Source: Opitutales bacterium
GTDB taxonomy: Bacteria > Verrucomicrobiota > Verrucomicrobiia > Opitutales > PNEW01
Direction: 5' to 3'
NCBI GenBank assembly: GCA_965197745.1
Contig: CBDANS010000007.1
Coordinates: 1,344,001-1,408,000, forward strand
Length of the DNA: 64,000 nt
In this document: piece by piece, positions 8,537 through 26,664 of the stretch
Position numbering within the stretch: the stretch's first letter is position 1
How the letters are laid out: each line of letters opens with the position of its first letter
The notes under the pieces: model-generated
What the model saw: only the letters and a program-made list of their open reading frames with translations
Databases searched by the model: none
What the model was told of the DNA's origin: nothing
Translations under genes and position numbers: made by a program

Positions 8537-8720
8537 CTACATTATAAATAATAAAATAAATCAGATTTTAAAATATAATTGCATATAATGATTTCAATAC
8601 ACTCATTCAAGTAACTGAATATCACTTATAGCACCATTTTTATTAGAAAGAGGTGGTCGTGACCACGAAAACTGGTCCACTTGAAAAGTTAGTCTGGTCC
8701 AACTAGAAAGGACACAGACA

Positions 8721-8987
8721 ATGAAAGGCAAAAGATACACGACCGAAGAGAAAATACGGATGCTGCGCCAGGCGGACAAAGGGAAAACGATCCTGGAAGC
8801 ATGCCGCGAGAACAACATAAGCGAACAGACCTTCCACCGCTGGAAACGTGAGTTTGGGATGATTGATGTCAACCAGGCCAAGCGGATGAAGGAGCTCGAG
8901 AAGGAGAACGCGCGGTTAAAACGGATGCTGGCGGACAAGATGCTGGGGATAGAGATCCTGCAGGAGACCCTCGAAAAAAAACTGTAA
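8721..8987 (+). CDS. IS3 transposase OrfA (HTH)
   Basis: RYTTEEKIRML...CRENNISEQTFHRWK...ELEKENARLKRML; ends in an A8C slippery run at 8974-8982. Confidence 0.92.
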   Translation: MKGKRYTTEEKIRMLRQADKGKTILEACRENNISEQTFHRWKREFGMIDVNQAKRMKELEKENARLKRMLADKMLGIEILQETLEKKL

Positions 8988-9931
8988 GCCCTGGGCACAA
9001 GCGGCAAGTGGCAGAGAGACTTGTGACTCGGGGCCAGTGTTCGATGCGAGCGGGGTGCCGGTACTTTCGGCTGCACCGTTCCACCTATGCGTATAGGGCC
9101 AAGCATCCGGATGCCTGGCTAACGAAACTAAAAGCGGCAGTAAGGCGGTTATCACGGCAATACGCGAGGTGGGGCTATCCCAAGATCACGAAGCTGTTGA
9201 AGGACGAAGGCTGGCAGGTGGGTAAACGTCTCGTGCAAGGTCTGCGACGTGAACTGGGTCTGGCGATCCCCCCACGCAAGCCAAGACGCCGGCGCAGGGG
9301 TGTCTGCACCGGGCTACCGACAAAGGCCGAACATCCCGACCATGTTTGGACCTGGGATTTTATCCACGATAAGACGGTTCGCGGCGGCAGTCTAAAAATG
9401 CTGACCGTGCTCGATGAGTACACCCGCGAGTGCCGGGTGATCCATGTTGATCGCCATATCAATGCGGAAACGGTGCGCGGTATCATGCAAAAACTGCTCG
9501 ACCGGCATGGGCCGCCAAAATATATTCGTAGCGACAACGGTTCCGAGTTTATTGAAAGCCAATTGAGAGCCTGGCTAACTGCGATGAAAATCAAAACCCT
9601 CTATATCGAACCAGCAAGCCCTTGGCAGAACGGATACATTGAATCGTTCCATGCCCGTTTTCGCGAGGAGTGTTTAAACCGTGAACAGTTATGGACTTTG
9701 ACCGAAGCCCGCGTGGTCATCGAAGATTGGCGCTGGCTTTACAATCATGTCCGACCCCACCGCAGCCTCGGCAACATCACTCCACGGCACTTCACTGAAA
9801 ACCTCAATACCGAAGGCTCGGGCTCCATTCGGGCTACGCCCTCATTGCGCCCAAGCCTTGACTTCCTCTACCAACTTAACTTCAACATTAACCTCTCCAG
9901 ACTAACTCTCCCGGTGGACCAGTTTGTGTAA
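8981..9931 (+). CDS. IS3 transposase OrfB (DDE), expressed by -1 frameshift
   Basis: WTWDF, DEYTRE, RSDNGSEF, PWQNGYIESF, YNHVRPHRSLG; frame is -1 relative to orfA across the A8 run. Confidence 0.92.
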   Translation, partial: TVSPGHKRQVAERLVTRGQCSMRAGCRYFRLHRSTYAYRAKHPDAWLTKLKAAVRRLSRQYARWGYPKITKLLKDEGWQVGKRLVQGLRRELGLAIPPRKPRRRRRGVCTGLPTKAEHPDHVWTWDFIHDKTVRGGSLKMLTVLDEYTRECRVIHVDRHINAETVRGIMQKLLDRHGPPKYIRSDNGSEFIESQLRAWLTAMKIKTLYIEPASPWQNGYIESFHARFREECLNREQLWTLTEARVVIEDWRWLYNHVRPHRSLGNITPRHFTENLNTEGSGSIRATPSLRPSLDFLYQLNFNINLSRLTLPVDQFV

Positions 9932-9966
9932 CCCGACCACATATTCAGAAAAATATCGAGGATGGA

Positions 9967-12734: not shown

Positions 12735-12941
12735 ACCTATATCGGCCTAATTATCGGGCTGATCGGAGCTATATTTCTTTCCCGTGTCATAGAGAGCTTA
12801 CTCTTTGAAGTCTCGCCAACCGACTCCTGGGGCTAAACAATTGTTATTATAACAATTGTAAGTACTGCGATTGTGGTCAGTATATTACCTTCGCTTAAAG
12901 CTTCAAAAATAGATCCAATAGTAGCGTTACGCTACGCATAA
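12735..12941 (+). pseudogene. C-terminal fragment of a second ABC permease
   Basis: Translates TYIGLIIGLIGAIFLSRVIESLLFEVSPTDSWG*TIVIITIVSTAIVVSILPSLKASKIDPIVALRYA*, parallel to the end of the 9967 permease, with an internal TAA. Confidence 0.8.
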
Positions 12942-12955
12942 ATTGGCAATATAGG

Positions 12956-12987
12956 TTGACATTATATATGTAGTTAAACTACATATA
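12956..12987 (+). promoter_or_regulatory. TTGACA followed by a perfect 11-1-11 palindrome (putative operator)
   Basis: TTGACA 12956-12961; TATATGTAGTT-A-AACTACATATA 12965-12987. Confidence 0.5.
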
Positions 12988-12994
12988 GGAATGT

Positions 12995-14312
12995 TGGTCG
13001 TGACCACGAAAACTGGTACACTTGAAAAGTTAGTCTGGGTAACCTAGAAAGGACTCAGACAATGAAAGGCAAAAGATACACAACTGAAGAGAAAATACGG
13101 ATGCTGCGGCAGGCGGACAAAGGGAAAACGATCCTGGAAGCATGCCGCGAGAACAACATTAGCGAACAGACTTTCCACCGCTGGAAGCGTGAGTTTGGGA
13201 TGATTGATGTCGACCAGGCCAAGCGGATGAAGGAGCTCTTTGAAGGAGAACGCGCGGTTAAAACGGATGCTGGCGGACAAGATGCTGGGGATAGAGATCC
13301 TGCAGGAGACCCTCGAAAAAAAACTGTAAGCCCTGGGCACAAGCGGCAAGTGGCAGAGAGACTTGTGGCTCGGGGCCAGTGTTCGATGCGAGCGGGGTGC
13401 CGGTACTTTCGGCTGCACCGTTCCACCTATGCGTATAAGGCGAAGCATCCGGATGCCTGGTTAATGAAACTGAAGGCGGCAGTAAGGCGGTTATCACGGC
13501 AATATGCCAGGTGGGGCTATCCGAAGATCACGAAGCTGTTGAAAGACGAAGGCTGGGAGGTGGGTAAACGTCTCGTGCAAGGTCTACGACGCGAACTGGG
13601 CTTGGCGATCCCCCAACGCAAGCCAAGACGTCGGGGCAGGGGTGTTTCCACCGGGCTGCCGACCAAGGCCGAACATCCCGGCCATGTTTGGACCTGGGAT
13701 TTTATCCACGATAAGACGGTCCGCGGTGGCAGTTTAAAAATGTTGACCGTGCTCGATGAGTACACCCGCGAGTGTCGAGTGATCCATGTTGATCGCCATA
13801 TCAATGCGGAAACGGTGCGCGGTATCATGCAAAAACTGCTTGCCCGTCATGGGCCGCCACAATATATTCGCAGTGACAACGGTTCCGTTCCGAGGAGCGA
13901 AGCGACGACATGCGAAGCCATTCATTGAAAAGGAATTGAGAGCCTGGCTAACTGCGATGAAAATCAAAACCCTCTATATCGAACCAGGAAGCCCTTGGCA
14001 GAACGGATACATCGAATCGTTGCATGCCCGTTTTCGCGAGGAGTGTTTAAACCGTGAACAGCTATGGACTTTGACCGAAGCCCGCGTGGTGATCGAGGAC
14101 TGGCGCTGGCTTTACAATAATGTCCGACCCCACCGCAGCCTCGGCAATATCACCCCACGGTGCTTCGCTGAAGACATTAATACCGAAGGCTTGGGCTCCA
14201 TTCGGGCTACGCCCTCATTGCGCCCAAGCCTTGACTTCCTCTACCAACTTAACTTCAACATTAACCTCTCCAGACTAACTCTCTCGGTGGACCAGTTTAC
14301 GTAACCCGATCA
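12995..14312 (+). mobile_element. IS3-family insertion sequence, copy B (isoform of copy A, disrupted, 1318 bp)
   Basis: Same IRL/IRR type as copy A; +1 nt in orfA (CTCTTTGAAG vs CTCGAGAAG) and a net +31 nt at 13888-13919 account for the 32-bp length difference. Confidence 0.93.
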
Positions 14313-14314
14313 TC

Positions 14315-14416
14315 CGAGTTTATAATTTTTTGATAATATCAGAGATAGCCCTATCAATTTTGCTTTTAGCTGGCGCTGGACTGATACTTAAAAGCTATCA
14401 TCATCTAAAGAATACG
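14315..14416 (+). pseudogene. Internal fragment of a third ABC permease, between two IS elements
   Basis: Translates RVYNFLIISEIALSILLLAGAGLILKSYHHLKNT, parallel to RIRSFLIIAQISLTFILLICSALLIKSLTELLKV in the 9967 permease. Confidence 0.8.
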
Positions 14417-15767
14417 TGGAGTGACCCCCAAAAATGGTATCATTAACAGAGAGAGGTTATCGGGATAAACAGATAACCTCAATGAAAAGAAAAAGATATA
14501 CAACAGAACAGATCATAGCAATACTGCGGCAGCCCGATACGGGCAAAACCGTGCAGGAAGTCTGCCACGGCAACAACCTAAGTGAACAGACCTTCTATCG
14601 CTGGGGCAAAAAGTATGGCAACTTGGAGCTGGCTGATGCGAAGCGATTTAAAGAGCTGGAAAAGGAGAATACGGAGCTGAAGAAGATGCTCGCTGATCAA
14701 ATGCTCAAGCTTCGGGTGTTGGAGGAAACGCTCTCAAAAAAATGGTGAGCCCAAAGCAGAAGAAGCGAGCAGTAAAAGATGCGGCTGAGAAGGGGCTGTG
14801 CTCGTTTTAGAGGGCTTGTGCTTATCTCAGCCTCAGTTGGTCAACGTACAGCTACCGACCCAAGCAGGCCAGTAAGAAGGCTCAGCAATTGGCCGAGCGG
14901 ATTTTGACCTTGTCCTGGGAACATCCCCGTTACGGTTACCGGCGCATTCGTGCCTTGCTGGTGAAAGAAGGTTGGGCGGCAAGCAGGAAATTTGTACAGG
15001 CAGTGCGACGTTCTTCGGGCTTACAGGTAAAGCCCCCGAAAAAGCGTAGACACCGTCAGGGGATCTCTACTGGGCTCCCTACTAAAGCAACCGGTCGCAA
15101 TCACGTCTGGTCCTGGGACTTTGTCCATGATCGTACAGACAATGGCGGTATGCTAAAGATGATGACCTTGATCGATGTACCGAGGAGCTGAAAGCGACGA
15201 CACTCAAGCGAAGCGAAGACATATACGCGTAAATGTTTACGCATCCGGGTAGCTCGACAGCTCACCTCAACCGATGTTCTCTCGGTACTCAGCGAAACCA
15301 TCGATGAAGAGGGAGTTCCTAGCTATATCCGCAGTGACAACGGCAGTGTTCCGAGGAGCGAAGCGACGACATGCGAAGCCATTCATTGCTCATCAGGTGC
15401 AGCAGTGGTTGTCCGACAAAAAGATCAAGGCGATATATATCGATCCGGGCAGTCCCTGGCAAAACGGTTTCATCGAGTCGTTTCACAACCGCTTACGCGA
15501 TGAGTGTTTGAACCGTGAAGTGTTGCTCAGCGTGGCTGAAGCGCAAGTTGTAATAGAACAATGGCGTCAGACCTATAACAATGAACATCCCCACAGTCGA
15601 TTAGGCTTTAAAAGCCCACAAGAGTTTGTCACATTCCTTTCCGCTCTTGGCCGCGTTCGGGCTACGCCCTCACTGCGCCAAGATCTCTCATATACATCAA
15701 TCCTAAAACCATTAACACCCGGTAGTTCTCCCACTTAAAATTTGATACGAAATACGGGGTCCGATCA
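14417..15767 (+). mobile_element. IS3-family insertion sequence, distinct type C, with a pseudogenised transposase
   Basis: IRL TGGAGTGACCCCCAAAAATGGTATCA, IRR (rc) TGATCGGACCCCGTATTTCGTATCA; orfA 14482-14748; orfB has a TAG near 14808 and inserts at 15178-15220 and 15349-15380; WSWDF and PWQNGFIESF motifs retained. Confidence 0.9.
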
Positions 15768-16670
15768 GGTCTTTTCGACTTTCCAGTTTCTTGGATCCGG
15801 TGAGGAGGTAAGGACGAGAATGTTGCGGTAGGCTTCAGGATTTGTCTGCTTGCTTCCGATTGACCAGTAACGGGAGCTCTTTTCGTCATAGCGGATAGTG
15901 AATTTAGAACTGCCTCCGGGAAAGTAAATAATATCGTTATTGCGATCATGCGAGAGTTGGAATCCGTCATCCGCAATGTGGACGATTGCCGCCTTGTCAC
16001 CCCCATATCCGTTAGCTCGCAGTATGTTGACCAGCTTGCCATCAGGCGCTAATATGATGTTTCCCTCGATCCACTCTATCCACTTGGAACCGGGCCAGTC
16101 ATAGCGGAGGGGTTTGCTCATATGCCAGTTGTCTGCTTTGAGCAGGTCTGCATCAGAAGAAATCGAAAAAACGAGCACCGACCATTGAGGGCGTTCTCCC
16201 TCGGCTAATTCAAAAGCACGCCAGATTCTACCGTTATGAATCAATAGGGGTACCGGCGCGCAATGATAATGGGTATCGTCCCTGATGAGACCGGTTTTTC
16301 CATCTTTCGGGTCCGTCCACGTATTTCCTCCATCGTCAGATCTGCGAATGATGACGTCGCCATATTCGCGACTGGTGCCAATAAGATAGAGAGCATCATT
16401 ATGAATGAAAAGGGTGGACAACCATTGACCTTTAAAACGGGAAAATTGCTTCCAGCTTTCCCCTCTGTCGTCAGAGCCGAAGACTGCCATTTCATTGTAA
16501 TCCGTCCCCGGTCCAAATAAATCGTGAGCGGCGACGTAATTACCGTTAGCAAGAACAATCAGGGTAGGGGAACCGATGAAAGCCTGGCTACTGGCGGGGC
16601 TGTGAGCAATTACAGTTCCGGGGACTTCGGAATGATCCGGCAGTCGTTGTTCTTCATTTGATGCAGACAT
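15765..16670 (-). pseudogene. Sialidase-like (BNR/Asp-box) beta-propeller protein, 3'-truncated by IS type C
   Basis: Asp-boxes SDDRGESW and SDDGGNTW; its stop codon is the terminal TGA of the IS right end. Confidence 0.7.
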
Positions 16671-16753
16671 AAAAAAAGCAATGATGAGAAAGCTGCAGTT
16701 GATCCATTCTGATTGCGCCCTGGAGGAAGACGTGATTATGGATCATTCACTCT

Positions 16754-17512
16754 TTATATTCGCACACGAAAATCATTCTTGCCGGAGCGATCGACGCCGC
16801 GCATGAGAAAAAGCGAACGTTCGGGAGCATTCGATGTGCCATCCTGCCTGTTCTTCTGCTCAATATCGCGGTCGTAGACAGAGGTGGAAGGCATAAACCT
16901 GAGGGTCAAACCACGCCGCGGCTTATCGGAACTGTTGGATTCTGAACCGTGCGCGAGGAATACATCATGCAGTGACATTTGACCGGCTTCGAGAACGATG
17001 TCGTGAACGAGACGTTCATCAAATTCTGATTTTTTAAGGACAAGAGGTAAGCTCAAAGTTGGATCATTATTAACTTCATGCTCACCTAAATGTTTATCTT
17101 TATGCGATCCGGGAATGACGCGCAAACAGCCGTTTTCGGTGTTTGAGGCATCCGCCGCGATCCACACGGTGCAAGTGGCAAGCGGTCGAATAGGCCAATA
17201 CTCACCATCCTGGTGCCAGGGTGTGGTGCTTCCTATTCTTGCCGGTTTGGCGAAAAAACTGGCATTCCAAAGGACAATGTCGTCACCGAGAAGCTGCGCC
17301 ACCATATCGAGGATTTCCGGATCTTTTGCGAAATTGAGAAAACCAGTGTCAAAGGCTAGTAAAGTGGAACAGAAGTCACTGAATTCGGGGTGGTGAGCAA
17401 TAAGTCGATCGTGGGTCTCTTTTATCTCGCTTAAAACTGTATTCGGAAGCCGATAGTCGGGAATGACATAACCATTTTCCCGGTAATAAGAGAGCTGTTG
17501 TTCAGTCAACAT
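16754..17512 (-). CDS. Phytanoyl-CoA dioxygenase (PhyH) family protein
   Basis: YRENGYVI, FFAKP, PWHQD, ENGCLRVIPGSH, HGS motifs. Confidence 0.92.
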   Translation of the reverse strand: MLTEQQLSYYRENGYVIPDYRLPNTVLSEIKETHDRLIAHHPEFSDFCSTLLAFDTGFLNFAKDPEILDMVAQLLGDDIVLWNASFFAKPARIGSTTPWHQDGEYWPIRPLATCTVWIAADASNTENGCLRVIPGSHKDKHLGEHEVNNDPTLSLPLVLKKSEFDERLVHDIVLEAGQMSLHDVFLAHGSESNSSDKPRRGLTLRFMPSTSVYDRDIEQKNRQDGTSNAPERSLFLMRGVDRSGKNDFRVRI

Positions 17513-17715
17513 GCTGAATTGTGGGTTTCTTTAGAGATAATTAACAGAAAGTAATACAAAATAGTGCGTAATAACTATATAAAAGCAAAAAATAATAATG
17601 CTCTCAGATCTTGATCATTAAGATAATATAGGTTACTCAAATAGGATCTGTAATTAGAGAATATATAGACTCATATTCTTCAATAGGTAATCTAAAAAGA
17701 TACAGGAAATTCATA

Positions 17716-19956
17716 ATGAAAAAGTCGCTCGCTTTATTTCTACTCGTAGTCTCATTCAGTGTTTCTGCTATTCTTAATGCACAGCCCGAATCACTCGATA
17801 CTTTATATGATTTTGAGAATATCACTGCCGATGGATCAGACTTCACTATCGGGGAAGCACCTTTTACCATCCGGGTCATTGGTTATACGCTGCAAGATGT
17901 AGAGAACCCAACTCTTGCTCACTCAGGTAATCGGGCGCTGGTCCTTGATCCCTCCGCCCCTGAACATAAAATATTATTCGAAAGAGGCGTCAACCTGCTT
18001 CAGTTTTATGCCGTCGACACCGCGGGCGGCAGTAAAATAGAACTCAGAGATAAAAATTTTATTTTTCTGGCTGATGAAGGTGTGGTCAACGGTTTGCCGA
18101 CCACGCACGGTCTGCAAAGTTTTGTCTCTTTCAGCGGAGATATCCAGGATTTAACGGATCTTAATTTTACTAACGGGATAAAAGAAATTAAACTCGTCAA
18201 TCCCGGTGGGCAAGTTGCAATCGATGACCTGGGTTTTACTTACGTCGAAGGGCCGCCGAATAATACGGTGTACGAGGATTTTACGGATTTAAATAATCAC
18301 CCGATTTTTAAAGATTTTTCTAAGCGAGCCAATTTTACTTTGGGAGTATCCCCATATTCTGCGACATTTACCGGTGGCATTGTAGCACCTACTGATTTCC
18401 CCTTGTATACTTTTGAACATACCAATCCTTTACTGGTAGATCAGGGAGGTTCAGGGTCCTGGTCGATTGTAAATGATACGACGTCAAACCAGACTCCGGA
18501 TCCGGCCGTGGGAATGATCGTCTTTGAAACCCCCGTTGTGCAGGTGCAATTTTATGCCGCTGTTTTTTTTGAGAACGATGGTGTCATTGATGTTTTCGAT
18601 ACCGAAGGAAACCTGCTTACGACGACTGATGACGTCCCGCTGAATATAAATATTGGTTACGAGGGAGATTTTACTTATTTCGATTTCAACGCGGCGGAGT
18701 TAGGCGCAGCCGGTGGGATAGGGAGTGTCCATTATACGAATACCCCATTTATCGGGGATACCGGAAGTATTCCTCAGATTAGTCTCGATGATATCGGGTT
18801 TACCCCTATCGGCGCGCCCGGAAGTGGTAACGAAGGACCGCCTCCAGTTCAAGGTCCGACAATTACTACCCAACCCACGAGCCAGGAAGTGCAGTCCGGT
18901 ACCGCTATAGCACTAACAGTCGCCGCCAGCGGTGATGATCTTGCTTACCAGTGGTATACTGGTAACAGCGGTGATACCGCTAACCCCGTCGCCGGCGCCA
19001 CCGACAGCACGCTAACCACCGGCGCCCTTACCGCGAGCACGAACTACTGGGCGCAGGTAACCAATGCCAGTGGCTCCGCTGACAGCGATACTGCGGTCAT
19101 CACCGTGTCAGCGCCTTCCATACCCCTCGTCCTTGACGGCTCAGGAGATATCGCCGGGGAAGACATTCAGCATGCCAACGGCAACGTCTTCGACCAGATA
19201 TTACTCACCGGAGAGTTCGTCCAACTCCAGGCCAAACCGGGACAGATCACCCGCGTTTCCTTCATGGACGAAAACGAGGACATTGTGCAGGTAGAATTCT
19301 CAGGTAACGGTACCTTTACCGTAACCCTCGACCCGGCCACTTTCCTGCCTCCGGCCGTCCCCCCGCGCTACAACCAGCAGGTTGAGTACGTGACGGGCAA
19401 GCCAAGCGTGATCATCGACGGAGCAGACGCCAATACCTTCTTCAGCATCTTCACGGTGGGAAGGATCAACGCCTTTAACCAGGCGCTGTTCCCCGAGGGA
19501 CAGGTCTATGACGCTCAGGCCGATGTGGCCCTCGTAGAAGTAGTCAACTCCACGGGACTGGGAGGGGTACAGTTATCGAATGCCGTATTCAGTGGAAGCA
19601 CGGGCAATGTCGGCTTCGATGCACGCGGCGTACCGATCGCGGTACGCTTAACGGTGGGCGACATCGACGCCGATGGAGATGCGGTGCCGCATCTCCTGTT
19701 CGGAGAAGGGTCCTTCACAGTGCCGGCAGGCAATCCCGGCTTGCGAATCACCGGAGGTGACCTCTTGCAGACGAACGGCGCTGCGGTCGTCGTCGCCGAG
19801 AGTGGTTCAACCACGACCGGGTTTGAGACCCTGATCACCCAGAACAACTTCAAGTCTGACGAAACGCCTCAGCCGACACTGAGCATCGATGCCACCTTCG
19901 CCAACGAAGACGGGGATGCGATCGAGGTTACAACAGAGGAATTGACGATCGAGTGA
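17716..19956 (+). CDS. Secreted multidomain protein with an Ig-like module and a conserved C-terminal domain
   Basis: Signal peptide MKKSLALFLLVVSFSVSA; two acidic beta-rich modules ending IDDLGFT/LDDIGFT; Ig module PTITTQPTSQ...LAYQWY...YWAQVTN; C-terminal ~275 aa shared with the neighbouring paralogue. Confidence 0.85.
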   Translation: MKKSLALFLLVVSFSVSAILNAQPESLDTLYDFENITADGSDFTIGEAPFTIRVIGYTLQDVENPTLAHSGNRALVLDPSAPEHKILFERGVNLLQFYAVDTAGGSKIELRDKNFIFLADEGVVNGLPTTHGLQSFVSFSGDIQDLTDLNFTNGIKEIKLVNPGGQVAIDDLGFTYVEGPPNNTVYEDFTDLNNHPIFKDFSKRANFTLGVSPYSATFTGGIVAPTDFPLYTFEHTNPLLVDQGGSGSWSIVNDTTSNQTPDPAVGMIVFETPVVQVQFYAAVFFENDGVIDVFDTEGNLLTTTDDVPLNINIGYEGDFTYFDFNAAELGAAGGIGSVHYTNTPFIGDTGSIPQISLDDIGFTPIGAPGSGNEGPPPVQGPTITTQPTSQEVQSGTAIALTVAASGDDLAYQWYTGNSGDTANPVAGATDSTLTTGALTASTNYWAQVTNASGSADSDTAVITVSAPSIPLVLDGSGDIAGEDIQHANGNVFDQILLTGEFVQLQAKPGQITRVSFMDENEDIVQVEFSGNGTFTVTLDPATFLPPAVPPRYNQQVEYVTGKPSVIIDGADANTFFSIFTVGRINAFNQALFPEGQVYDAQADVALVEVVNSTGLGGVQLSNAVFSGSTGNVGFDARGVPIAVRLTVGDIDADGDAVPHLLFGEGSFTVPAGNPGLRITGGDLLQTNGAAVVVAESGSTTTGFETLITQNNFKSDETPQPTLSIDATFANEDGDAIEVTTEELTIE

Positions 19957-20408
19957 GGAATGATCTATCGATCAGTTTTAGCCGCCGTCGTCCCGCGGGT
20001 GCGGGACTATGGCGTGCCATGGGTGTTATGTGAATATGTGGAACGCAACCTGCGATGAGCTCAGTCGAATCGTGACTCTAGCGCGTTGAGGATGTCGCAA
20101 TTGAAGAAACGCGCTGGGGAATGTCGGACACGTATGTCAGCTCCTTGGAATGTATGATGTCGTCTCGCTGTCGTGGTACTCGGTAGCCACGGCTGACAAG
20201 GGAGTAAAGACCCAATCCAAACACGGAGCGGGTCCCTTCAGCTATGTTAAATCCTTACCCCTTAGAATTTTAACAGTATAGATTTACCTTAAATGGAATA
20301 TTGATGTTTTTAGTAACAAATTATTGCCAAAAAATTACTCTGTGTTCATAAATTCACACTCATTTTTGGTAGAAATCAGCATTATTTTATGCAGAAAGAA
20401 GATCGTTT

Positions 20409-22625
20409 ATGACTAATTATAAATTTTTGAGCGCAGTAATAGTTTTCTTAGGATTAACGGTTCAATTGTCAGCCCAACCTGAATCACTTGATACTTTTTT
20501 TGATTTCGAGAATGTCACGGGTGAAGGGCCAGAATTTATAATAGGGGAATCCCCTTTCACGGTCCGTATTATTGGATTTACTTTACAGGATGTAGATCCC
20601 GGCCTTGCTCACTCGGGTAACCGGGCCCTGGTTCTCGATCCGAGTGCACCTGACCATAAGATATTATTTGAAAGAGGGGTATATGAACTTCAATTCTATG
20701 CTGTCGATACCTTGGGAGGAGGAAGGATCGAAATTAGAGAAAGACATTTTCGTGATTTAAATCAACAAGGCGTAGTCAACGGCTTGACGACCAGCCCTGG
20801 TCTACAAAGTTTCGTCTCCTTTAGTGGAGATGTCCTGGATTTATCAGATTTGAATTGGACGAATGGGATGAAAGAATTAAAAATTATCAATCCTGCCGGA
20901 CAAATAGCGATTGATGACCTGGGATTTACTTATGTTGAAGGGCCACCAGATAATACGATATTTGAAGATTTTTGGTTTTTTTTAGAGCGTGCTGAATTTT
21001 TATTCCCAACTGGGAGTCGAACGGATTTCATCATTGGTTTTCCACCTTACACCGCGCACTTTACGGGCGGTGTCATCACGGGGGGGTTACCCGCTTATAA
21101 TCACTCCTTACCTGGTGGGGGTGGGCATTGGGCAATTGTCCAGCAAGAGATCTCCGGCCAACCGGTTCAAGAGATTACAGGAGTCATTGAATTTGAAACC
21201 CCGGTTGCTCAGTTACAGTTCTACGCCGCCATATTTTTTGAGGATGATGGCTTTATTGAAATCTTCGATACAGAAGGGAACCTGCTTACAGCAACCGACG
21301 ATATCGGCATGAATGTAAGTGTAGAATTGACTCAAGCTTTTACTTATTTCGACTTCAATGCAGTGGAATTAGGGGCCCCCGGTGGCATTGGTAGTCTACA
21401 CTATACGAACAGGACGATCACCTCTACTACGGGGAATGTTGATAGCATCGGAATTGACGACATCGGGTATACTCCCATCGGTGCCCCCGGCAGTGGTTCC
21501 GAGGGACCACCCCCCTGTCTCGGGTCCCTCCATCACCACCCAACCGTCGGGCCAGGAAGTGCAGTCCGGCACGGCGGTGGTTTTATCCGTTGTAGCCAGC
21601 GGCGATGATCTTACCTATCAATGGTATACCGGCACCAGAGGCGACAGCGCCAATCCCATTGCCGGCGCTACGGGAAGCAGCCTGACCACCGGTGCTCTCA
21701 CCGTGAGCACCAACTTCTGGGCACAGGTTAGCAATGCCGGAGGAACAGCCGATAGTGATACTGCGAGCATTACGGTGACAGTCCCTGCGGTCCCCCTTGT
21801 CCTTGAAGGTTCGGGCGATATCGCCGGAGAGAATATCCAGCATCCTAACGGTAATGTATTCGACCAGATTCTGTTAACCGGGGAGTCCATTCATCTCCAG
21901 GCCAGGACGGGACAAATCACTCGGGTCTCCTTCATGGACGAAACCGAGGACATCGTGCAGGTCGAGTTTTCAGGCGCAGGGACCTTTACCGTTACCCTCG
22001 ACCCGGCCAGCTTCCTGCCCCCGGCCATTCCCCCACGCTACAACCAGACAGTCGAGTACGTGACGGGCAAGCCCAGCGTGTTCATAGAGGGAGCCGACGC
22101 GAATACCTTTTTCAGTATCTTCACGGTAGGGAAGATCAACGCCGTGAACCAGGCCCTGTTCCCAGAAGGACAGGTCTATGACGCGGAAGCCGATGTGACG
22201 CTGGTGGAAGTGATCAACTCCACAGGAATGGGAGGAATGCAACTGTCGAACACTGTTTTTTCAGGAAGCACGGGGAAAGTCGGAGTGGATGCACGAGGAG
22301 TGCCCATAGCAGTACGATTAACGACAGGCGACATTGATGCGAGTGGGGACGCGGTACCGCACCTCCTGTTTGGTGAGGGATCCTTCACGGTGCCCGCTGG
22401 TAACCCCGGTTTGCGGATCACGGGAGGAGACCTGGAACAGACAAACGGTGCCTCAATCGTGATCGCAGAAAGTGGATCGACGACCCCGGGTTTGAGACAT
22501 TGATCACGCAGAACAATTTTAAATCGGATAACACCCCTCAGCCGACACAGAGTATTGACGCAACCTTCGCCAATGAGGATGGTGATGCGATCTCCGTCAC
22601 TGTTGATGAAGTGACAATTGAATGA
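20409..22625 (+). pseudogene. Tandem paralogue of the 17716 protein with two homopolymer frameshifts
   Basis: Colinear with 17716-19956; +1 in the C6 run 21510-21515, -1 at the GGG/TTT run 22488-22493; the frame then resumes to the TGA at 22623-22625 (...DEVTIE*). Confidence 0.82.
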
Positions 22626-22834
22626 GGAATGATCTATCGATCAGTTTTAGGTGTTAAGTTTTAAGTGTTAAGTGAATAGGTGGAACGTGCTGTCCTCCAA
22701 CCAGGATATAACTTTCGTATCGCTCTAAATTTTCTTTCTTGTGTATTTTGCGCGTCTTGCGTTGCTTAGAAATAGTTTCGCATCAGTGAAGTAGCATCTG
22801 GTAGTTATTTTAATCTACTCCAACATTCAATACT

Positions 22835-23290
22835 ATGACAGAAGATAAAATATTTCCTACCCGTGGGAGCATTGAAGAAGCAGAAGAGGGTGATCTCCTG
22901 CAACTCAAATTCGATGAAAACGGTCTTATACCCTGTATCACTCAGGACGCAGAGAGCAACGAAATCCTTATGTTTGCCTACATAAATGAGACGGCCCTAA
23001 GCGCTTGTATCAGCACCGGCCTCGCGCATTATTACTCTCGCTCTCGGAAAAAACTTTGGAAAAAAGGAGAGCAATCGGGGTATATTCAGAGGATCGTCAG
23101 TTTAAATATAGACTGTGATCAGGACTGTATACTACTCAAGGTTAAAGTTGAAGGCGGTGCTTCATGTCACCTGGGTTACCGTTCCTGCTTTTTCCGAGAA
23201 CTGGAAACATTGTCTGATGACACTGATTTTAAATTAAATTTTATCGAAAAAGAAAAAATATTCGATCCGAGCAAAGTTTATAACCGGTAA
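22835..23290 (+). CDS. hisI: Phosphoribosyl-AMP cyclohydrolase
   Basis: YYSRSRKKLWKKGEQSG, DCDQD, CHLGYRSCF. Confidence 0.95.
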   Translation: MTEDKIFPTRGSIEEAEEGDLLQLKFDENGLIPCITQDAESNEILMFAYINETALSACISTGLAHYYSRSRKKLWKKGEQSGYIQRIVSLNIDCDQDCILLKVKVEGGASCHLGYRSCFFRELETLSDDTDFKLNFIEKEKIFDPSKVYNR

Positions 23291-23356
23291 TATTAAATAA
23301 CAGAATTAGTGTAATGATTGTGCGCGAAAACGGGAAATTTTAATCTAAATAAATAG

Positions 23357-24856
23357 ATGGAAGAATTGCCCTCATTCAGCGTTTTTAATTACACTATATG
23401 TGCTGTTTATCTGGCTGTAATGTTCAGCATCGGGTTATGGCTGGCTGGAAAGCAGAAGACGACAGAAGACTACTTCCTCGCGGGTCGAAAAATGCCATGG
23501 ATTATCGTTGCCATGAGTATGTTCGCCTCGCTTACGAGCGCGGCTTCCTTTATCGGAATGCCGGGGCTCGCTTATCGAGAAAATATTTCTCAAATTGCTG
23601 TTGGGGTTGTTAGTGTTCTTGCCGCTCCCTTTTTTATCTATCTTTTTTATCCTTTTTATCGACGGCTCCGCGTAACCACTACTTACGAATACATAGGGTT
23701 TCGCTACGGGAGACCCGGTCGCTATGCTGTATCGGGATTGTTTGTGCTGCTGCGTTTATCCTGGCTTGGCATCGTCATCTACTCCCCCTCTCTTGCCTTA
23801 TCGGTAGCGACCGGGGTTAACCTTTATCTCGCAATTCTTCTCATGGGCGTTCTCGCCACCACCTATACAGTCCTCGGTGGCCTGTCCGCGGTACTGTGGA
23901 CTGATGCTATTCAATTCATCCTCCTTGTGGGCGGGGCAATCTGGGTGTCGATAAGTTTACTTTACGCCGTTCCCGATGGGTGGGCTGGTATTATTACCAT
24001 CGCCAGCGAAACAAACCATTTGAATGTATTCACCTGGAAAATCAGCATTTTTGAGATGAGTGCTACGGCCGTTGCTTTCACTACTTTCATTGGGTTTTTT
24101 CTAGGCTACGGGATTGACCAGGTTACGGTGCAAAGGCTTTTAGCGACAAAAAAATTCAGTGGGATGGTAAAGGCTACGGTGGTAAACTCATTCATCGATT
24201 TGATCATCGTCGGTATTTTAATTTTTATCGGAATAGGCATGTTCGCCTTTTATCACCATTTTCCTGAGCAAGCCTCCGAGGAAATGAAAGGAGATAGAGT
24301 GCTGCCTTTTTACATTATGCAGAATCTTCCTGACGGGGTATCCGGACTCCTCATCACAGCCATCTTTGCGGCCGCGATGTCGAGTATGGATTCAGGGATA
24401 AATTCGGTCTCTACTGTCATCGTTAACGATTTTGTTAAACCATTGCGCCGCAAAGCCAGGACTGAACATCAAGATGTACAGTTAGCGCGTATCCTTACTT
24501 TTGTCTTGGGAGTATTAGCGGTTATTGTAGCCTGTTATGTTACAACAATAGGAGAAATTATTAAAGCCGGCGGGACTCTCATGAGCCTTTTTGCGGGACC
24601 AATTCTTGGCCTTTTTCTACTTGGCATATTCACTCAGCGTGCAAATATTCTGGGATGGGTTATAGGTACTGCCATCGCCATACCCGCTACTCTCTGGTTA
24701 CAACACAATACGGAAGTCCATTTTATTTATTACGAGTTTTTCTGTTTATGTGTAAACCTGATAATTACCTATCCTGCCAGTCTCATTTTTGGCGGGGAAA
24801 AAGCACCGAAAAAATTTACACTCAAGGGAAGGTCGGAATTAAATGCAGGTGAATAG
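23357..24856 (+). CDS. Sodium:solute symporter (SSS) family transporter
   Basis: DYFLAGRKMPW, YTVLGGLSAVLWTD, DQVTVQR, AAAMSSMDSGINS; many TM helices. Confidence 0.92.
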   Translation: MEELPSFSVFNYTICAVYLAVMFSIGLWLAGKQKTTEDYFLAGRKMPWIIVAMSMFASLTSAASFIGMPGLAYRENISQIAVGVVSVLAAPFFIYLFYPFYRRLRVTTTYEYIGFRYGRPGRYAVSGLFVLLRLSWLGIVIYSPSLALSVATGVNLYLAILLMGVLATTYTVLGGLSAVLWTDAIQFILLVGGAIWVSISLLYAVPDGWAGIITIASETNHLNVFTWKISIFEMSATAVAFTTFIGFFLGYGIDQVTVQRLLATKKFSGMVKATVVNSFIDLIIVGILIFIGIGMFAFYHHFPEQASEEMKGDRVLPFYIMQNLPDGVSGLLITAIFAAAMSSMDSGINSVSTVIVNDFVKPLRRKARTEHQDVQLARILTFVLGVLAVIVACYVTTIGEIIKAGGTLMSLFAGPILGLFLLGIFTQRANILGWVIGTAIAIPATLWLQHNTEVHFIYYEFFCLCVNLIITYPASLIFGGEKAPKKFTLKGRSELNAGE

Positions 24857-25131
24857 ATGGACCCGGCTATTTTCGAATGCGGATATGGGATTTCGGATTT
24901 TTCTATTATTTGCAAGTCTCGTAATCGAGGGTTTATTCGATGACTAACATTGTGACATTATTTTGGGGCATCGCCGAAGAAGTGAACCTTCGTCCCACAG
25001 TAGAGGGACTACGCCGTGGCAAGCAGACCAGTAGCTGTTGCATTAATATCACCTAATTTAAATTTATAAAACATACCCTTATTTGAAAGGCCTGAACGGT
25101 GACTTGTAATCGTATATACAATGTCTATTTG

Positions 25132-25246
25132 CCTGGATTGCTTCGTCGTTTCACTTCTCGCAATGACAAAGGGATGAGCAGGCAGCGTGTTTTAATTACA
25201 CTCCTATTGTCATTGCGAGGCTGCTTGTCAGCCGTGGCAATCCAGG
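25132..25246. repeat. Inverted pair of GTCATTGCGAG...GCAATC palindromic repeats
   Basis: CCTGGATTGCTTCGTCGTTTCACTTCTCGCAATGACA 25132-25168 and TGTCATTGCGAGGCTGCTTGTCAGCCGTGGCAATCCAGG 25208-25246. Confidence 0.75.
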
Positions 25247-25520
25247 AGGATGTCTGTTGCATATCGTTAGCCTCCGAATGGTGAGGTTCACCTTTAATCG
25301 AACGATTGCATGGGTATAATTTAAAGTATCTTACTCATGTTTCTTAGCAACTATCATCAGACTTCGTTTCGCTTCTGCGAGACGAAGCCATGGCGGGACG
25401 AAGACGAAGATATAATTAAGGGATGTCGTAGTGCCGGTGCTCAATTGGATAAGCCAGTAATTATAATACTTGAAAAAGCGCATGGCGCGTTCATTCTATA
25501 GCTGCTTAAAATTTATTTAA

Positions 25521-26664
25521 ATGATACTTGATACCGAAATACGCTCAAAAATTGATGAAATAAATCGGCGGGCAGGATACCTATGGAGGTATCTTTGACG
25601 CCGAAGGTAAGCTTGGCGAAATAGCGAAAATTGAAGCAGAGATGGGGCAACCCACTTTTTGGGATAATCACGAAAATGCTCAAAAAAAAGCATCTCAGGT
25701 AAGTCAGCTCAAGCAAGTCATTAATCCTGTTATCGAGTTCCGTAAACAGGTGGAGGATCTCAAAGCAATGGAGGAACTTGTAGCGGAAGGATCAGATGAA
25801 GAAGCGCAGGAATTATTAATGGAAATTGAACCCATTACGGCAAAGCTTGCTGATGTTATAGGGAGCCTGGAAGTAAAATCATTTTTGAGTGGCCCCCATG
25901 ATCGATGCAACGCGATTATGGGCATCCATGCCGGGGCTGGAGGCACGGAGTCCTGCGATTGGGCAGAAATGCTTTTACGTATGTATACGCGCTGGAGTGA
26001 ACGCCATGGTTTCGAAGTTACGATACAGGATATGCAATCGGGTGAAGAAGCGGGAGTCAGCCGCGTCGCTATGCACATAGCAGGTGAAAACGCTTATGGT
26101 TATGCAAAAGCAGAACGCGGCGTGCATCGACTGGTCCGCATTAGTCCATTTGACTCGAACCGCCGCCGGCATACTTCCTTTTGTGCCGTTGATGTCATTG
26201 CCGAAATCGAGGATGACGCTGACATCGATATTATAGATGATGAATTGCGAATAGATACTTACCGTTCGAGCGGAAAGGGCGGACAACACGTAAATAAATC
26301 AGATACGGCAGTGCGCATTACTCATTTACCTACGGGTATTGTTGTTGCCTGTCAAAATGAACGATCGCAGTATAAAAATAAAGCGACTGCGATGAAAGTG
26401 TTGAAATCACGTATCTTTGAGAAAATGGAAGATGAAAAACGTGCGGAGCGAGATAAATTTTACGGTGAAAAAATTGAAATTGGTTGGGGAAATCAGATAC
26501 GCAGCTATGTTTTTCAACCCTATCAAATGGTTAAAGATTTACGCACCTCGGTAGAAACTTCCAATATTCAGGAAGTAATGGATGGAGATATAGACCGCTT
26601 TATTAACGCCTGGCTGCGCGCCGGCTGTCCCACCGCCCGGAATAAGACAGACAATAACGATTAA
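25521..26664 (+). CDS. prfB: Peptide chain release factor 2 with programmed +1 frameshift
   Basis: ATG at 25521, 25 codons to GGAGGTAT-CTT-TGA-C (25593-25599); the +1 frame joins the track ORF at 25642; SPF and GGQ motifs. Confidence 0.97.

Follow-up and report, generated by a model that had tools for sequence, protein, structure and literature searches.

In a 64,000-nt window of an Opitutales genome (G000:C7:1344001-1408000; the genome, G000, comprises 4.45 Mb in 7 contigs, and "the window" refers to this whole stretch), two different insertion sequences (IS), B and C, carry an identical 32-mer, TTCCGAGGAGCGAAGCGACGACATGCGAAGCC, at the same conserved codon of their transposase gene orfB. The insert is probably a tiny, non-coding mobile repeat that was inserted into the DNA itself and spreads by a combination of site-selective insertion, short-patch gene conversion and passive multiplication of the IS that carry it. 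It is one variant, that of site ii below, of a family of 25-45-nt elements of the form T(A/T)CCGAG...CA found in Opitutales. The feature is real, and its reading in a first-pass annotation as a tiny targeted element was broadly correct, but a larger family and gene conversion are involved as well. The features concerned are:

8653..9940, + strand: IS3-family element A, an empty allele, with orfA (8721-8987) and orfB (9008-9931) open and an intact target GAG at 9545-9547
12995..14312, + strand: IS3-family element B, 1318 bp, ends TGGTCGTGACCA...CCCGATCA, orfB broken by the site-ii element
13888..13920, + strand: site-ii tiny element in IS B, 33 nt, TTCC...GCCA (the 32-mer plus a final A), replacing AR of the Glu codon in DNGS-E-F
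14417..15767, + strand: IS3-family element C, 1351 bp, ends TGGAGTGACCCC...GGGGTCCGATCA, with a site-i and a site-ii element
15178..15221, + strand: site-i tiny element in IS C, 44 nt, TACCGAGGAGCTGAAAGCGACGACA...GACA, replacing AA of the Glu codon in LID-E-YTR of orfB
15349..15381, + strand: site-ii tiny element in IS C, with the same 32-mer as in IS B

As the annotation had claimed, the two copies of the 32-mer (13888-13919 and 15349-15380, + strand) are exact, and 0 of 100 shuffles of the window contained a match. Both copies are preceded by GACAACGGnnnnG and followed by ATTCATTG, and both lie in the Glu codon of DNGS-E-F, between its G and A-TTC-ATT. In each case orfB is broken, the upstream frame running to a stop and the downstream frame being shifted by +1, and the reading frame is lost upstream of the catalytic Glu. 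Copy A, which is unfilled, reads CGTAGCGACAACGGTTCCGAGTTTATTG at the target, again as annotated. The host elements possess orfA and orfB, an A-rich frameshift motif, a DDE core with DNG(S/P)EF and TG...CA ends, and on these motifs we take them to belong to the IS3 family. IS B and IS C are 59% identical over the whole element (54% in the 150 nt to the left of the insert and 66% in the 150 nt to its right), while the insert is identical in 32 of 32 positions. IS3 lineages with 41% divergence thus carry the same variant in the same codon. The site-i element of IS C keeps the frame but contains a TGA, and site iii of this IS is empty (AG at 15503-15504). Besides its two tiny inserts, IS C contains a TAG in frame within the N-terminal portion of orfB (14808-14810).

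For comparison, contigs of public sequencing runs were included, namely the DNA runs X1 and X2 and the RNA libraries X15 and X16, which stem from studies other than the DNA runs and in which window stretches without cover carry no information. The filled form occurs in X1 and X2 contigs with 0-1 differences, which supports the sequence independently, and the assemblies of two related genomes, G001 and G002, carry the filled form at the same IS3 codon. The empty form of the B site, G-AG-TTC, is present in X15 and X16 contigs, the empty C-type form, G-AG-TTC, was seen in run X1, and empty C-like alleles exist elsewhere in G000.

The pair in the window was described correctly, but it is not alone: G000 holds 51 exact 32-mers, 64 exact 18-nt cores and 72 copies when the observed one- or two-base variants of the 32-mer are tolerated, and the Glu codon of DNGSEF accommodates 64 of the 64 exact cores and all 72 variant-tolerant copies. 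These 72 copies lie in 39 flank contexts, which form 21, 13, 4 and 2 clusters at 95, 90, 80 and 70% flank identity, respectively. A single conversion tract between IS B and IS C of the window is thus ruled out as the source of the shared insert, because there are 13 flank clusters (90%) and two superfamilies only 54-66% identical beside the insert, and because distinct variants also occur at Glu-Phe codons of other transposase groups in other genera. A tblastn search with orfB of copy A revealed 114 IS3-like loci in G000. Empty alleles comprise four A-type copies (GAG TTT) and a few C-like remnants (GAA TTC, GAG TTC, GAG TTT), and every copy of a distant IS3 subgroup characterized by TVDNGPEF is empty in this genome. 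This assembly yielded no intact gene for a C-type transposase; 14 of its C copies differ by at most 20 substitutions.

Among distinct filled copies, the mean pairwise divergence of the insert amounts to 2.4% in the AB family against 6.7-8.6% for the flanking 100 nt, and to 1.1% in the C family against 5.3-12.3%, the insert thus being younger than the IS elements that host it. Seven identical B copies, together with further ones that differ by no more than 5 substitutions, are located at separate loci, and all of them are filled. The claim that the insert disables IS3 elements consequently holds for the transposase gene, which is broken, but not for the spread of the IS, as near-identical filled copies stand at many loci. 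A purposeful anti-IS function is not supported by the present evidence.

Alignments of full-length IS copies (AB family, n = 40; C family, n = 30) revealed five sites in these IS3 elements, each with filled and empty alleles:

Site 0: A8 frameshift motif, element in opposite orientation, 25 nt; filled in 6/40 AB copies
Site i: LID-E-YTR, 44 nt; filled in 27/30 C and 1/40 AB copies
Site ii: DNGS-E-F, 33 nt; filled in 35/40 AB and 30/30 C copies
Site iii: LRD-E-CLN, 37 nt; filled in 5/30 C copies
Site iv: PW-Q-NG, about 45 nt; filled in 6/30 C and 1/40 AB copies

At all five sites, AA or AG following a G or C is exchanged for a T(A/T)CCGAG...CA element without target duplication. The empty alleles of site ii read G-AG-TTY or G-AA-TTC, and AR gives way to a 33-nt element (T...A) with a net gain of 31 nt; the initial description, in which one A is replaced and no clean duplication arises, is accurate for GAA and is better put in this more general form. 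The net gains at sites iii and i are 35 and 42 nt, and the three empty C-family copies at site i read GATG-AA-TATACG. Public contigs display the exchange directly, with 33 nt where other contigs have AG at site ii, and 37 nt where the window has AG at site iii. The bases 5' of the insertion vary with site and lineage (TCCG, AGTG, TCGG, GATG, TGGC, TTAC), one or two target bases are replaced per insertion, and each variant remains confined to its own site even in IS lineages diverged by 10-40%.

The elements of sites i, ii and iii have in common a first module CCGAGGA, a 2-3-bp mini-hairpin and GACGACA, and members with the full first module consist of T(A/T)CCGAGGA, the mini-hairpin (GC-GAA-GC at site ii), GACGACA and a variable tail ending in CA, which usually bears a second GCGAAGC-like hairpin. 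The elements of sites 0 and iv share only the T(A/T)CCGAG start with the others. The GCGAAGC mini-hairpin is known for its special stability. Its two outer pairs are kept in 19 of 22 distinct inner segments, with G-C, A-T and T-A exchanges. Pairing of the tail with the 5' flank, considered as a guide, was dropped, the tail being a conserved second module, AGCGAAGCG, in all variants.

A regular-expression census of the family in G000 returned 161 matches, of which 125 are single units inside genes of IS3 loci. The remainder comprises about 30 elements nested in repeats known as Ssn-related motifs (SRM), 3 in partial copies of tRNA 3' ends and a few unclear or chance matches. What had been read as a lone sequence-targeted element is thus a family with at least 5 IS3 sites and further copies in SRM and tRNA ends; its small size, its presence in DNA, its recurrence at the same codon in diverged lineages and the lack of a duplication all stood. 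Two SRM copies facing each other are present in the window:

25132..25169, - strand: SRM copy, TTGTCATTG-CGAGAAGTGAAACGACGA-AGCAATCCAGG, SRM as defined in PMC11893778, with a purine-rich core in common with the IS inserts
25207..25246, + strand: second SRM copy, in facing orientation to the first and distinct from it in the inner hairpin (GGCTGCTTGTCAGCC)

In those passages of Chenal et al. 2025 (PMC11893778) that define these repeats, NTS and SRM carry a GTCATT box 5' and an AATCYRG box 3' of a palindrome, NTS reading CGTCATTCCCGCGMAVGCGGGAATCYRG; the boxes determine cutting and binding, and SsnA belongs to a GIY-YIG family of single-strand-specific nucleases. The SRM family of G000, TTGTCATTGCGAGG...GCAATCCAGG, has 116 left arms genome-wide and possesses the GTCATT and AATCYRG boxes, whereas both boxes are missing from the IS insert, G-TTC-CGAGG...GACGA-CATGCGAAGCC-A. 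The annotated likeness of the insert to the repeat at 25132-25168 was borne out, 15 of 18 core bases being alike and the repeat being an SRM. The 18-nt core of the insert is common to a subset of the G000 SRM copies, and SRM repeats are themselves a target of the tiny elements.

Partial tRNA ends form another home. Here, the element sits in the T-loop (GGTTCG-A-ATCC), in G000, Woeseiaceae and other genomes, and always downstream of an intact tRNA. At G000:C6:355430-355720 and C5:236420-236620, intact tRNA genes are followed, approximately 80 nt on, by one or two partial 3'-end copies, and the T-loop of each such copy is broken by a tiny element. The same tRNA layout was observed in G002 (L087), where it includes a small GIY-YIG gene and forms a 397-bp tandem unit. 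In the genus of G040, elements are located in intergenic composite repeats and inside one another under the same replacement rule, the target repeats reading GGGGTC-AA-ACC with AA replaced.

A comparison set of 41 related genomes, including G001, G002, G015, G035 and G040, was used to determine the distribution. A 23-mer with up to 2 mismatches was found in 5 of the 41 (G000, 73; G001, 12; G002, 14; G035, 2; G040, 1), and a looser box pattern gave 117 matches in G000, 70 in G002, 83 in G040, 18 in G001 and 6 in G035, with at most 3 in the others and 0-1 in controls. A scan of species genomes for a 21-nt core yielded at least 63 stretches among the loci listed, with labels including Opitutales, Puniceicoccaceae, Coraliomargarita, Woeseiaceae, Treponema and Sulfurovum; in some contexts, complementarity between the flanking arms is plain to see, as at the Treponema loci. 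Since JGI metagenome contigs are nearly devoid of matches (exact 32-mer, 0; 27-mer, 1), the distribution is drawn from genome collections. In Cerasicoccus arenae (L049), a different variant breaks V-D-N-G-P-E-F of another IS3 subgroup at G-AR-TTT, and in L057 and L089 a longer variant breaks K-Y-E-F-G of a different transposase, again at G-AR-TTT. The DNA of the latter transposase gene cannot be aligned with IS3, and judging from its motifs the transposase is presumably IS5-like. Copying between homologous IS does not explain these cases. In the open-access literature, we found no paper containing the sequence, searched in both orientations and as peptide, and none describing such inserts in transposase genes.

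Movement of the insert between IS copies is apparent in the A-type lineage, whose near-identical members comprise 4 empty and 9 filled copies and have thus gained or lost it recently. The downstream codon is TTC in 9/9 filled and TTT in 4/4 empty copies, a change compatible with a short tract converted from a donor of B or C type; the putative tract would stop before the next A-versus-B differences, 12-16 nt off on either side. The synonymous differences of copy A give it no protection, as the 9 filled A-type copies have the same CGTAGC flank. The leucine-zipper part of orfA exhibits a one-base length polymorphism, TTT or -GA (window 13239-13241 in IS B; alignment columns 245-247), of which the TTT form joins translation directly to the orfB frame and creates a 288-aa fused frame at 13062-13928 in IS B; both forms occur in empty and in filled A-type copies, and also in public contigs. 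As this unlinked polymorphism is found in both classes, either the insert or the polymorphism must have moved between copies. Three copies in G001 resemble B to the left (84%) and C to the right (93-99%) and switch from one to the other at the insert, which therefore also serves as a recombination point between IS families. Finally, 4-bp direct repeats are kept at the ends of only 13 of 66 full-length IS3 copies, which suggests frequent exchange of flanks between IS copies or, alternatively, assembly joins inside repeats.

One rival reading is a purely homology-driven spread, in which one ancestral insertion per site was copied only by ectopic conversion or crossing-over and the element has neither mobility nor targeting of its own today. 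Such a history would account for the strict tie of each variant to its own site, the donor-like TTC beside the insert in filled A-type copies, the four-gamete pattern among A-type copies, which is expected from conversion between near-identical copies, the chimeric IS that join at the insert, and the TVDNGPEF subgroup, which has other flanks and is never filled in G000. Nevertheless, we consider it unlikely as the whole explanation. The AB and C flanks are 54-66% identical and exact identity beside the insert extends over approximately 8 nt on each side, which is far below what RecA-type exchange needs. Moreover, different variants occupy the Glu-Phe codon both of another genus's IS3 subgroup and of a transposase whose DNA cannot be aligned with IS3, the replacement rule is the same at unrelated SRM repeats, tRNA T-loops and G040 repeats, and elements are nested in one another in G040. 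The spread resembles site-selective insertion to which conversion and recombination between IS copies contribute as well, as the four-gamete pattern, the TTT>TTC change and the G001 chimeras indicate.

For the reading that we favor, insertion of a tiny mobile repeat combined with conversion and passive spread, we propose the following course. A hairpin-recognizing single-stranded DNA nuclease or transposase would place the element at S-AR-W sites, with variant-specific selectivity added; an enzyme of this type is suggested because the element core is common to the single-strand-specific Ssn motifs and because REP-like elements behave alike. Short-patch conversion or recombination would then spread the element between IS copies, in which the insert is the longest stretch in common, while copies outside the favored sites may be purged by selection. 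The host IS would multiply the insert passively, and filled IS are presumably moved in trans by intact relatives, for example the 4 empty A-type copies with the same ends.

Several results weigh against this proposal. The tie between variant and site is also expected from pure homology-driven copying, and conversion may explain more than we have allowed for. A short target motif alone is insufficient, because the abundant TVDNGPEF subgroup has G-AG-TTT and is never filled, and G000 contains 11,579 GARTTY sites, with 34 S-AR-T sites in an empty IS; given so many targets, strong extra specificity or selective purging must be assumed. Support from covariation in the hairpin is modest because a control gives 63%, and RNA and DNA nearest-neighbor folds of the inserts, with and without flanks, showed no significant structure and positive z-scores, in models that omit the special GCGAAGC mini-hairpin. 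Because direct repeats flank only the 13 of 66 IS, the copy pattern may partly reflect recombination or repeat assembly. The mechanism itself is deduced indirectly, since no enzyme emerged from the families tested: none of the transposase, recombinase and nuclease families examined here explains the insertion chemistry, and G040 (83 elements) and G035 (6) have no small GIY-YIG gene. The single Y1 HUH gene (PF01797) of G000 (G000:C6:163380-163706) has no family motif in its neighborhood (C6:160000-167000; none within approximately 3 kb), and Y1 HUH genes, present in 5/5 element-bearing genomes, are also found in 17/36 others (22/41) and hence unspecific.

A rather improbable alternative is that the inserts are ordinary SRM and owe both their formation and their movement to the small GIY-YIG Ssn nucleases of G000. 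The 18-nt core shared with part of the SRM copies and the SRM-ssn-SRM arrangement in G000, which has two intact 97-aa GIY-YIG genes (C7:1542004 and C7:1545659) and two or three broken ones, speak for it. The SRM-flanked intact genes span G000:C7:1541995-1542282 and 1545599-1545889. In G002, moreover, a small GIY-YIG gene of another subfamily adjoins the tRNA-end copy with the element in a tandem cassette of the order tRNA, small GIY-YIG gene, partial tRNA with element. However, GIY-YIG nucleases are not known to form a covalent intermediate, so that cutting alone inserts nothing. Strong Ssn-type homologues are confined to G000, G001, G002 and G015; G040 and G035 carry elements without a small GIY-YIG gene, whereas G015, despite its Ssn homologue, has only 3 chance-level matches to the element pattern. 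No GIY-YIG frame lies within 1.2 kb at any of the 63 listed loci of other taxa (0/63), and the IS inserts are devoid of the GTCATT and AATCYRG boxes by which the defining passages of PMC11893778 recognize an SRM. Reverse transcriptase searches gave no match in G000, G001, G002 and G035. Ssn-type GIY-YIG nucleases and reverse transcriptase are thus not required for the elements. Of the co-occurrences with RAYT/HUH, GIY-YIG or reverse transcriptase genes envisaged in the first-pass annotation, that with HUH is unspecific, small GIY-YIG genes are missing in G040 and G035, and reverse transcriptase was not found in these four genomes.

Other candidates were rejected. The genes between paired G040 elements encode ExoD and KDPG aldolase and are ordinary genes. 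PF05635, the 23S rRNA intervening-sequence protein, has 14 matches in G000, 11 of them above the Pfam cut-off and some being fragments of one gene; around the 10 that were checked, at most one family motif occurred within 600 bp of any, and there was no clear association.

Removal or skipping of the insert during expression, be it as a mini-intron, by translational bypass or by frameshifting, would leave the transposase functional and make the insert a regulatory part of the IS, a view that we regard as very unlikely. It would agree with an insert far better conserved than its flanks, with numerous, near-identical interrupted IS copies, with the lack of an intact C-type transposase gene in the assembly and with the two RNA libraries X15 and X16, in which only empty-form contigs bridge site ii. 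However, splicing is unlikely because the empty G-AG-TTC cannot be derived from the filled sequence by a single deletion. The X16 contig departs from the IS at a loose end (14295), 17 nt short of the IS terminus, differs at 4 further positions and for these reasons resembles another copy of the IS more than a processed transcript; we read the empty forms in X15 and X16 as stemming from intact IS copies of other populations, either transcribed or carried over as DNA. In addition, net gains of 31, 35 and 42 nt leave no common frame, site i contains a TGA and IS C a TAG, inspection revealed no matched take-off and landing codons, and intact empty alleles exist. Rfam was silent as well, a scan of window positions 12900-26000 at E<=1 returning one chance miRNA match only.

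The possibility of an artefact from assembling or polishing a repeat-rich genome, for which the direct repeats at only 13/66 IS copies and the many identical copies might be cited, is practically negligible, given the filled form in contigs of independent public runs, the same filled site in two other assemblies, the core in at least 63 stretches of other species' genomes, and empty and filled A-type alleles side by side in one assembly.

The annotation had stated that no described system has these properties, which was too strong, the nearest kinds being Ssn-related motifs and the small repeats of cyanobacteria. The closest concept is that of the latter, the very small mobile repeated elements (SDR). 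These elements, which Elhai et al. reportedly described in 2008, are said to be a few tens of nt long and non-coding, with a small hairpin but neither inverted ends nor target duplication; they are also said to lie often inside other repeats and mobile elements. The Opitutales elements show no duplication, have a hairpin core and are nested in IS, SRM and each other, and may in these respects resemble SDR, but they belong to a different phylum, their sequence is unrelated as far as can be told, and they measure 25-45 nt, replace an A-purine dinucleotide and recur at particular transposase codons.

The elements lack the defining features of SRM, REP/RAYT systems, miniature inverted-repeat transposable elements (MITE), palindrome-associated transposable elements (PATE) and introns. 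With SRM and NTS, which the relevant passages of PMC11893778 present as small hairpin repeats in hundreds of copies thought to act as single-stranded DNA, they have in common that true SRM copies of G000 (GTCATTG...GCAATCCAGG) flank ssn genes and in some cases contain the 18-nt core of the IS insert; in contrast, the box-less IS inserts are intragenic, do not stand beside ssn genes, occur in genomes without small GIY-YIG genes and insert into SRM. REP and REPIN sequences with their RAYT partners are likewise short, non-coding hairpin repeats that spread in trans without duplication, as far as the consulted part of PMC3116915 describes them, and all five element-bearing genomes have a Y1 HUH family gene. 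However, the tiny elements have no layout of 5' tetranucleotide plus palindrome, form no doublets, are not extragenic and cost target bases; the lone Y1 gene of G000 is not flanked by them, and 125 of 161 are single units inside IS3 genes. As to MITE, the ends T(A/T)CCGAG and ...CA contain no terminal inverted repeats, and AR is replaced without target duplication. PATE of the IS200/IS605 type are similar in that they produce no target duplication, depend on hairpins and are strongly site-selective; they insert 3' of a fixed tetra- or pentanucleotide without base loss, whereas the tiny elements have variable 5' flanks and take the place of one or two bases.

Homing of group I/II introns and of freestanding homing endonucleases is characterized by recurrence at a conserved gene position, co-conversion of flanking sequence and the presence of empty and filled alleles. 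The tiny elements parallel these generally known features in their conserved position, co-converted flank markers and coexisting empty and filled alleles, but the 33-nt site-ii element neither has a ribozyme fold nor encodes a protein, no sign of splicing emerged, and it breaks the host gene. An assignment to introns or bypass elements is further contradicted by the empty form, which does not arise by one deletion, by the net lengths of 31, 35 and 42 nt, and by the lack of an Rfam match.

A more far-reaching idea, which we put forward only tentatively, is that these elements are parasites of parasites: non-autonomous units of 25-45 nt that home, by a sequence-selective, non-duplicative, single-strand mechanism of their own, to a few conserved transposase codons (Glu-Phe of DNGxEF in IS3, K-Y-E-F-G in the presumably IS5-like transposase), switch off the transposase by replacing one or two bases, ride on the crippled IS and use a kind of enzyme not yet linked to DNA insertion. 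If conserved transposase codons were truly chosen, these would be the smallest known site-selective mobile DNA, and a natural brake on insertion sequences that turns autonomous IS into passengers without a transposase. The chemistry is unusual in that one or two bases are exchanged without duplication and that a purine-rich core at the tip of a hairpin is conserved in several phyla, and the enzyme, once found, could provide a new tool for short, scar-defined insertions in single-stranded DNA. The inserts make transposase genes resemble pseudogenes and are hot spots at which unrelated IS families recombine, which is of importance both for annotation and for the assembly of repeat-rich genomes.

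Two further observations concern other genes. A release factor 2-like gene lies in 25513-26664 of the window (frame 25642-26664) and appears ordinary, with a CTTTGAC motif upstream, near 25590, which we take to be the usual prfB programmed +1 frameshift site. At G000:C5:56623-56832, direct repeats of ATTGCCTGGGCGAAGGCTG flank a 92-aa GIY-YIG gene from another subfamily, an arrangement reminiscent of a small gene cassette with a duplicated target.

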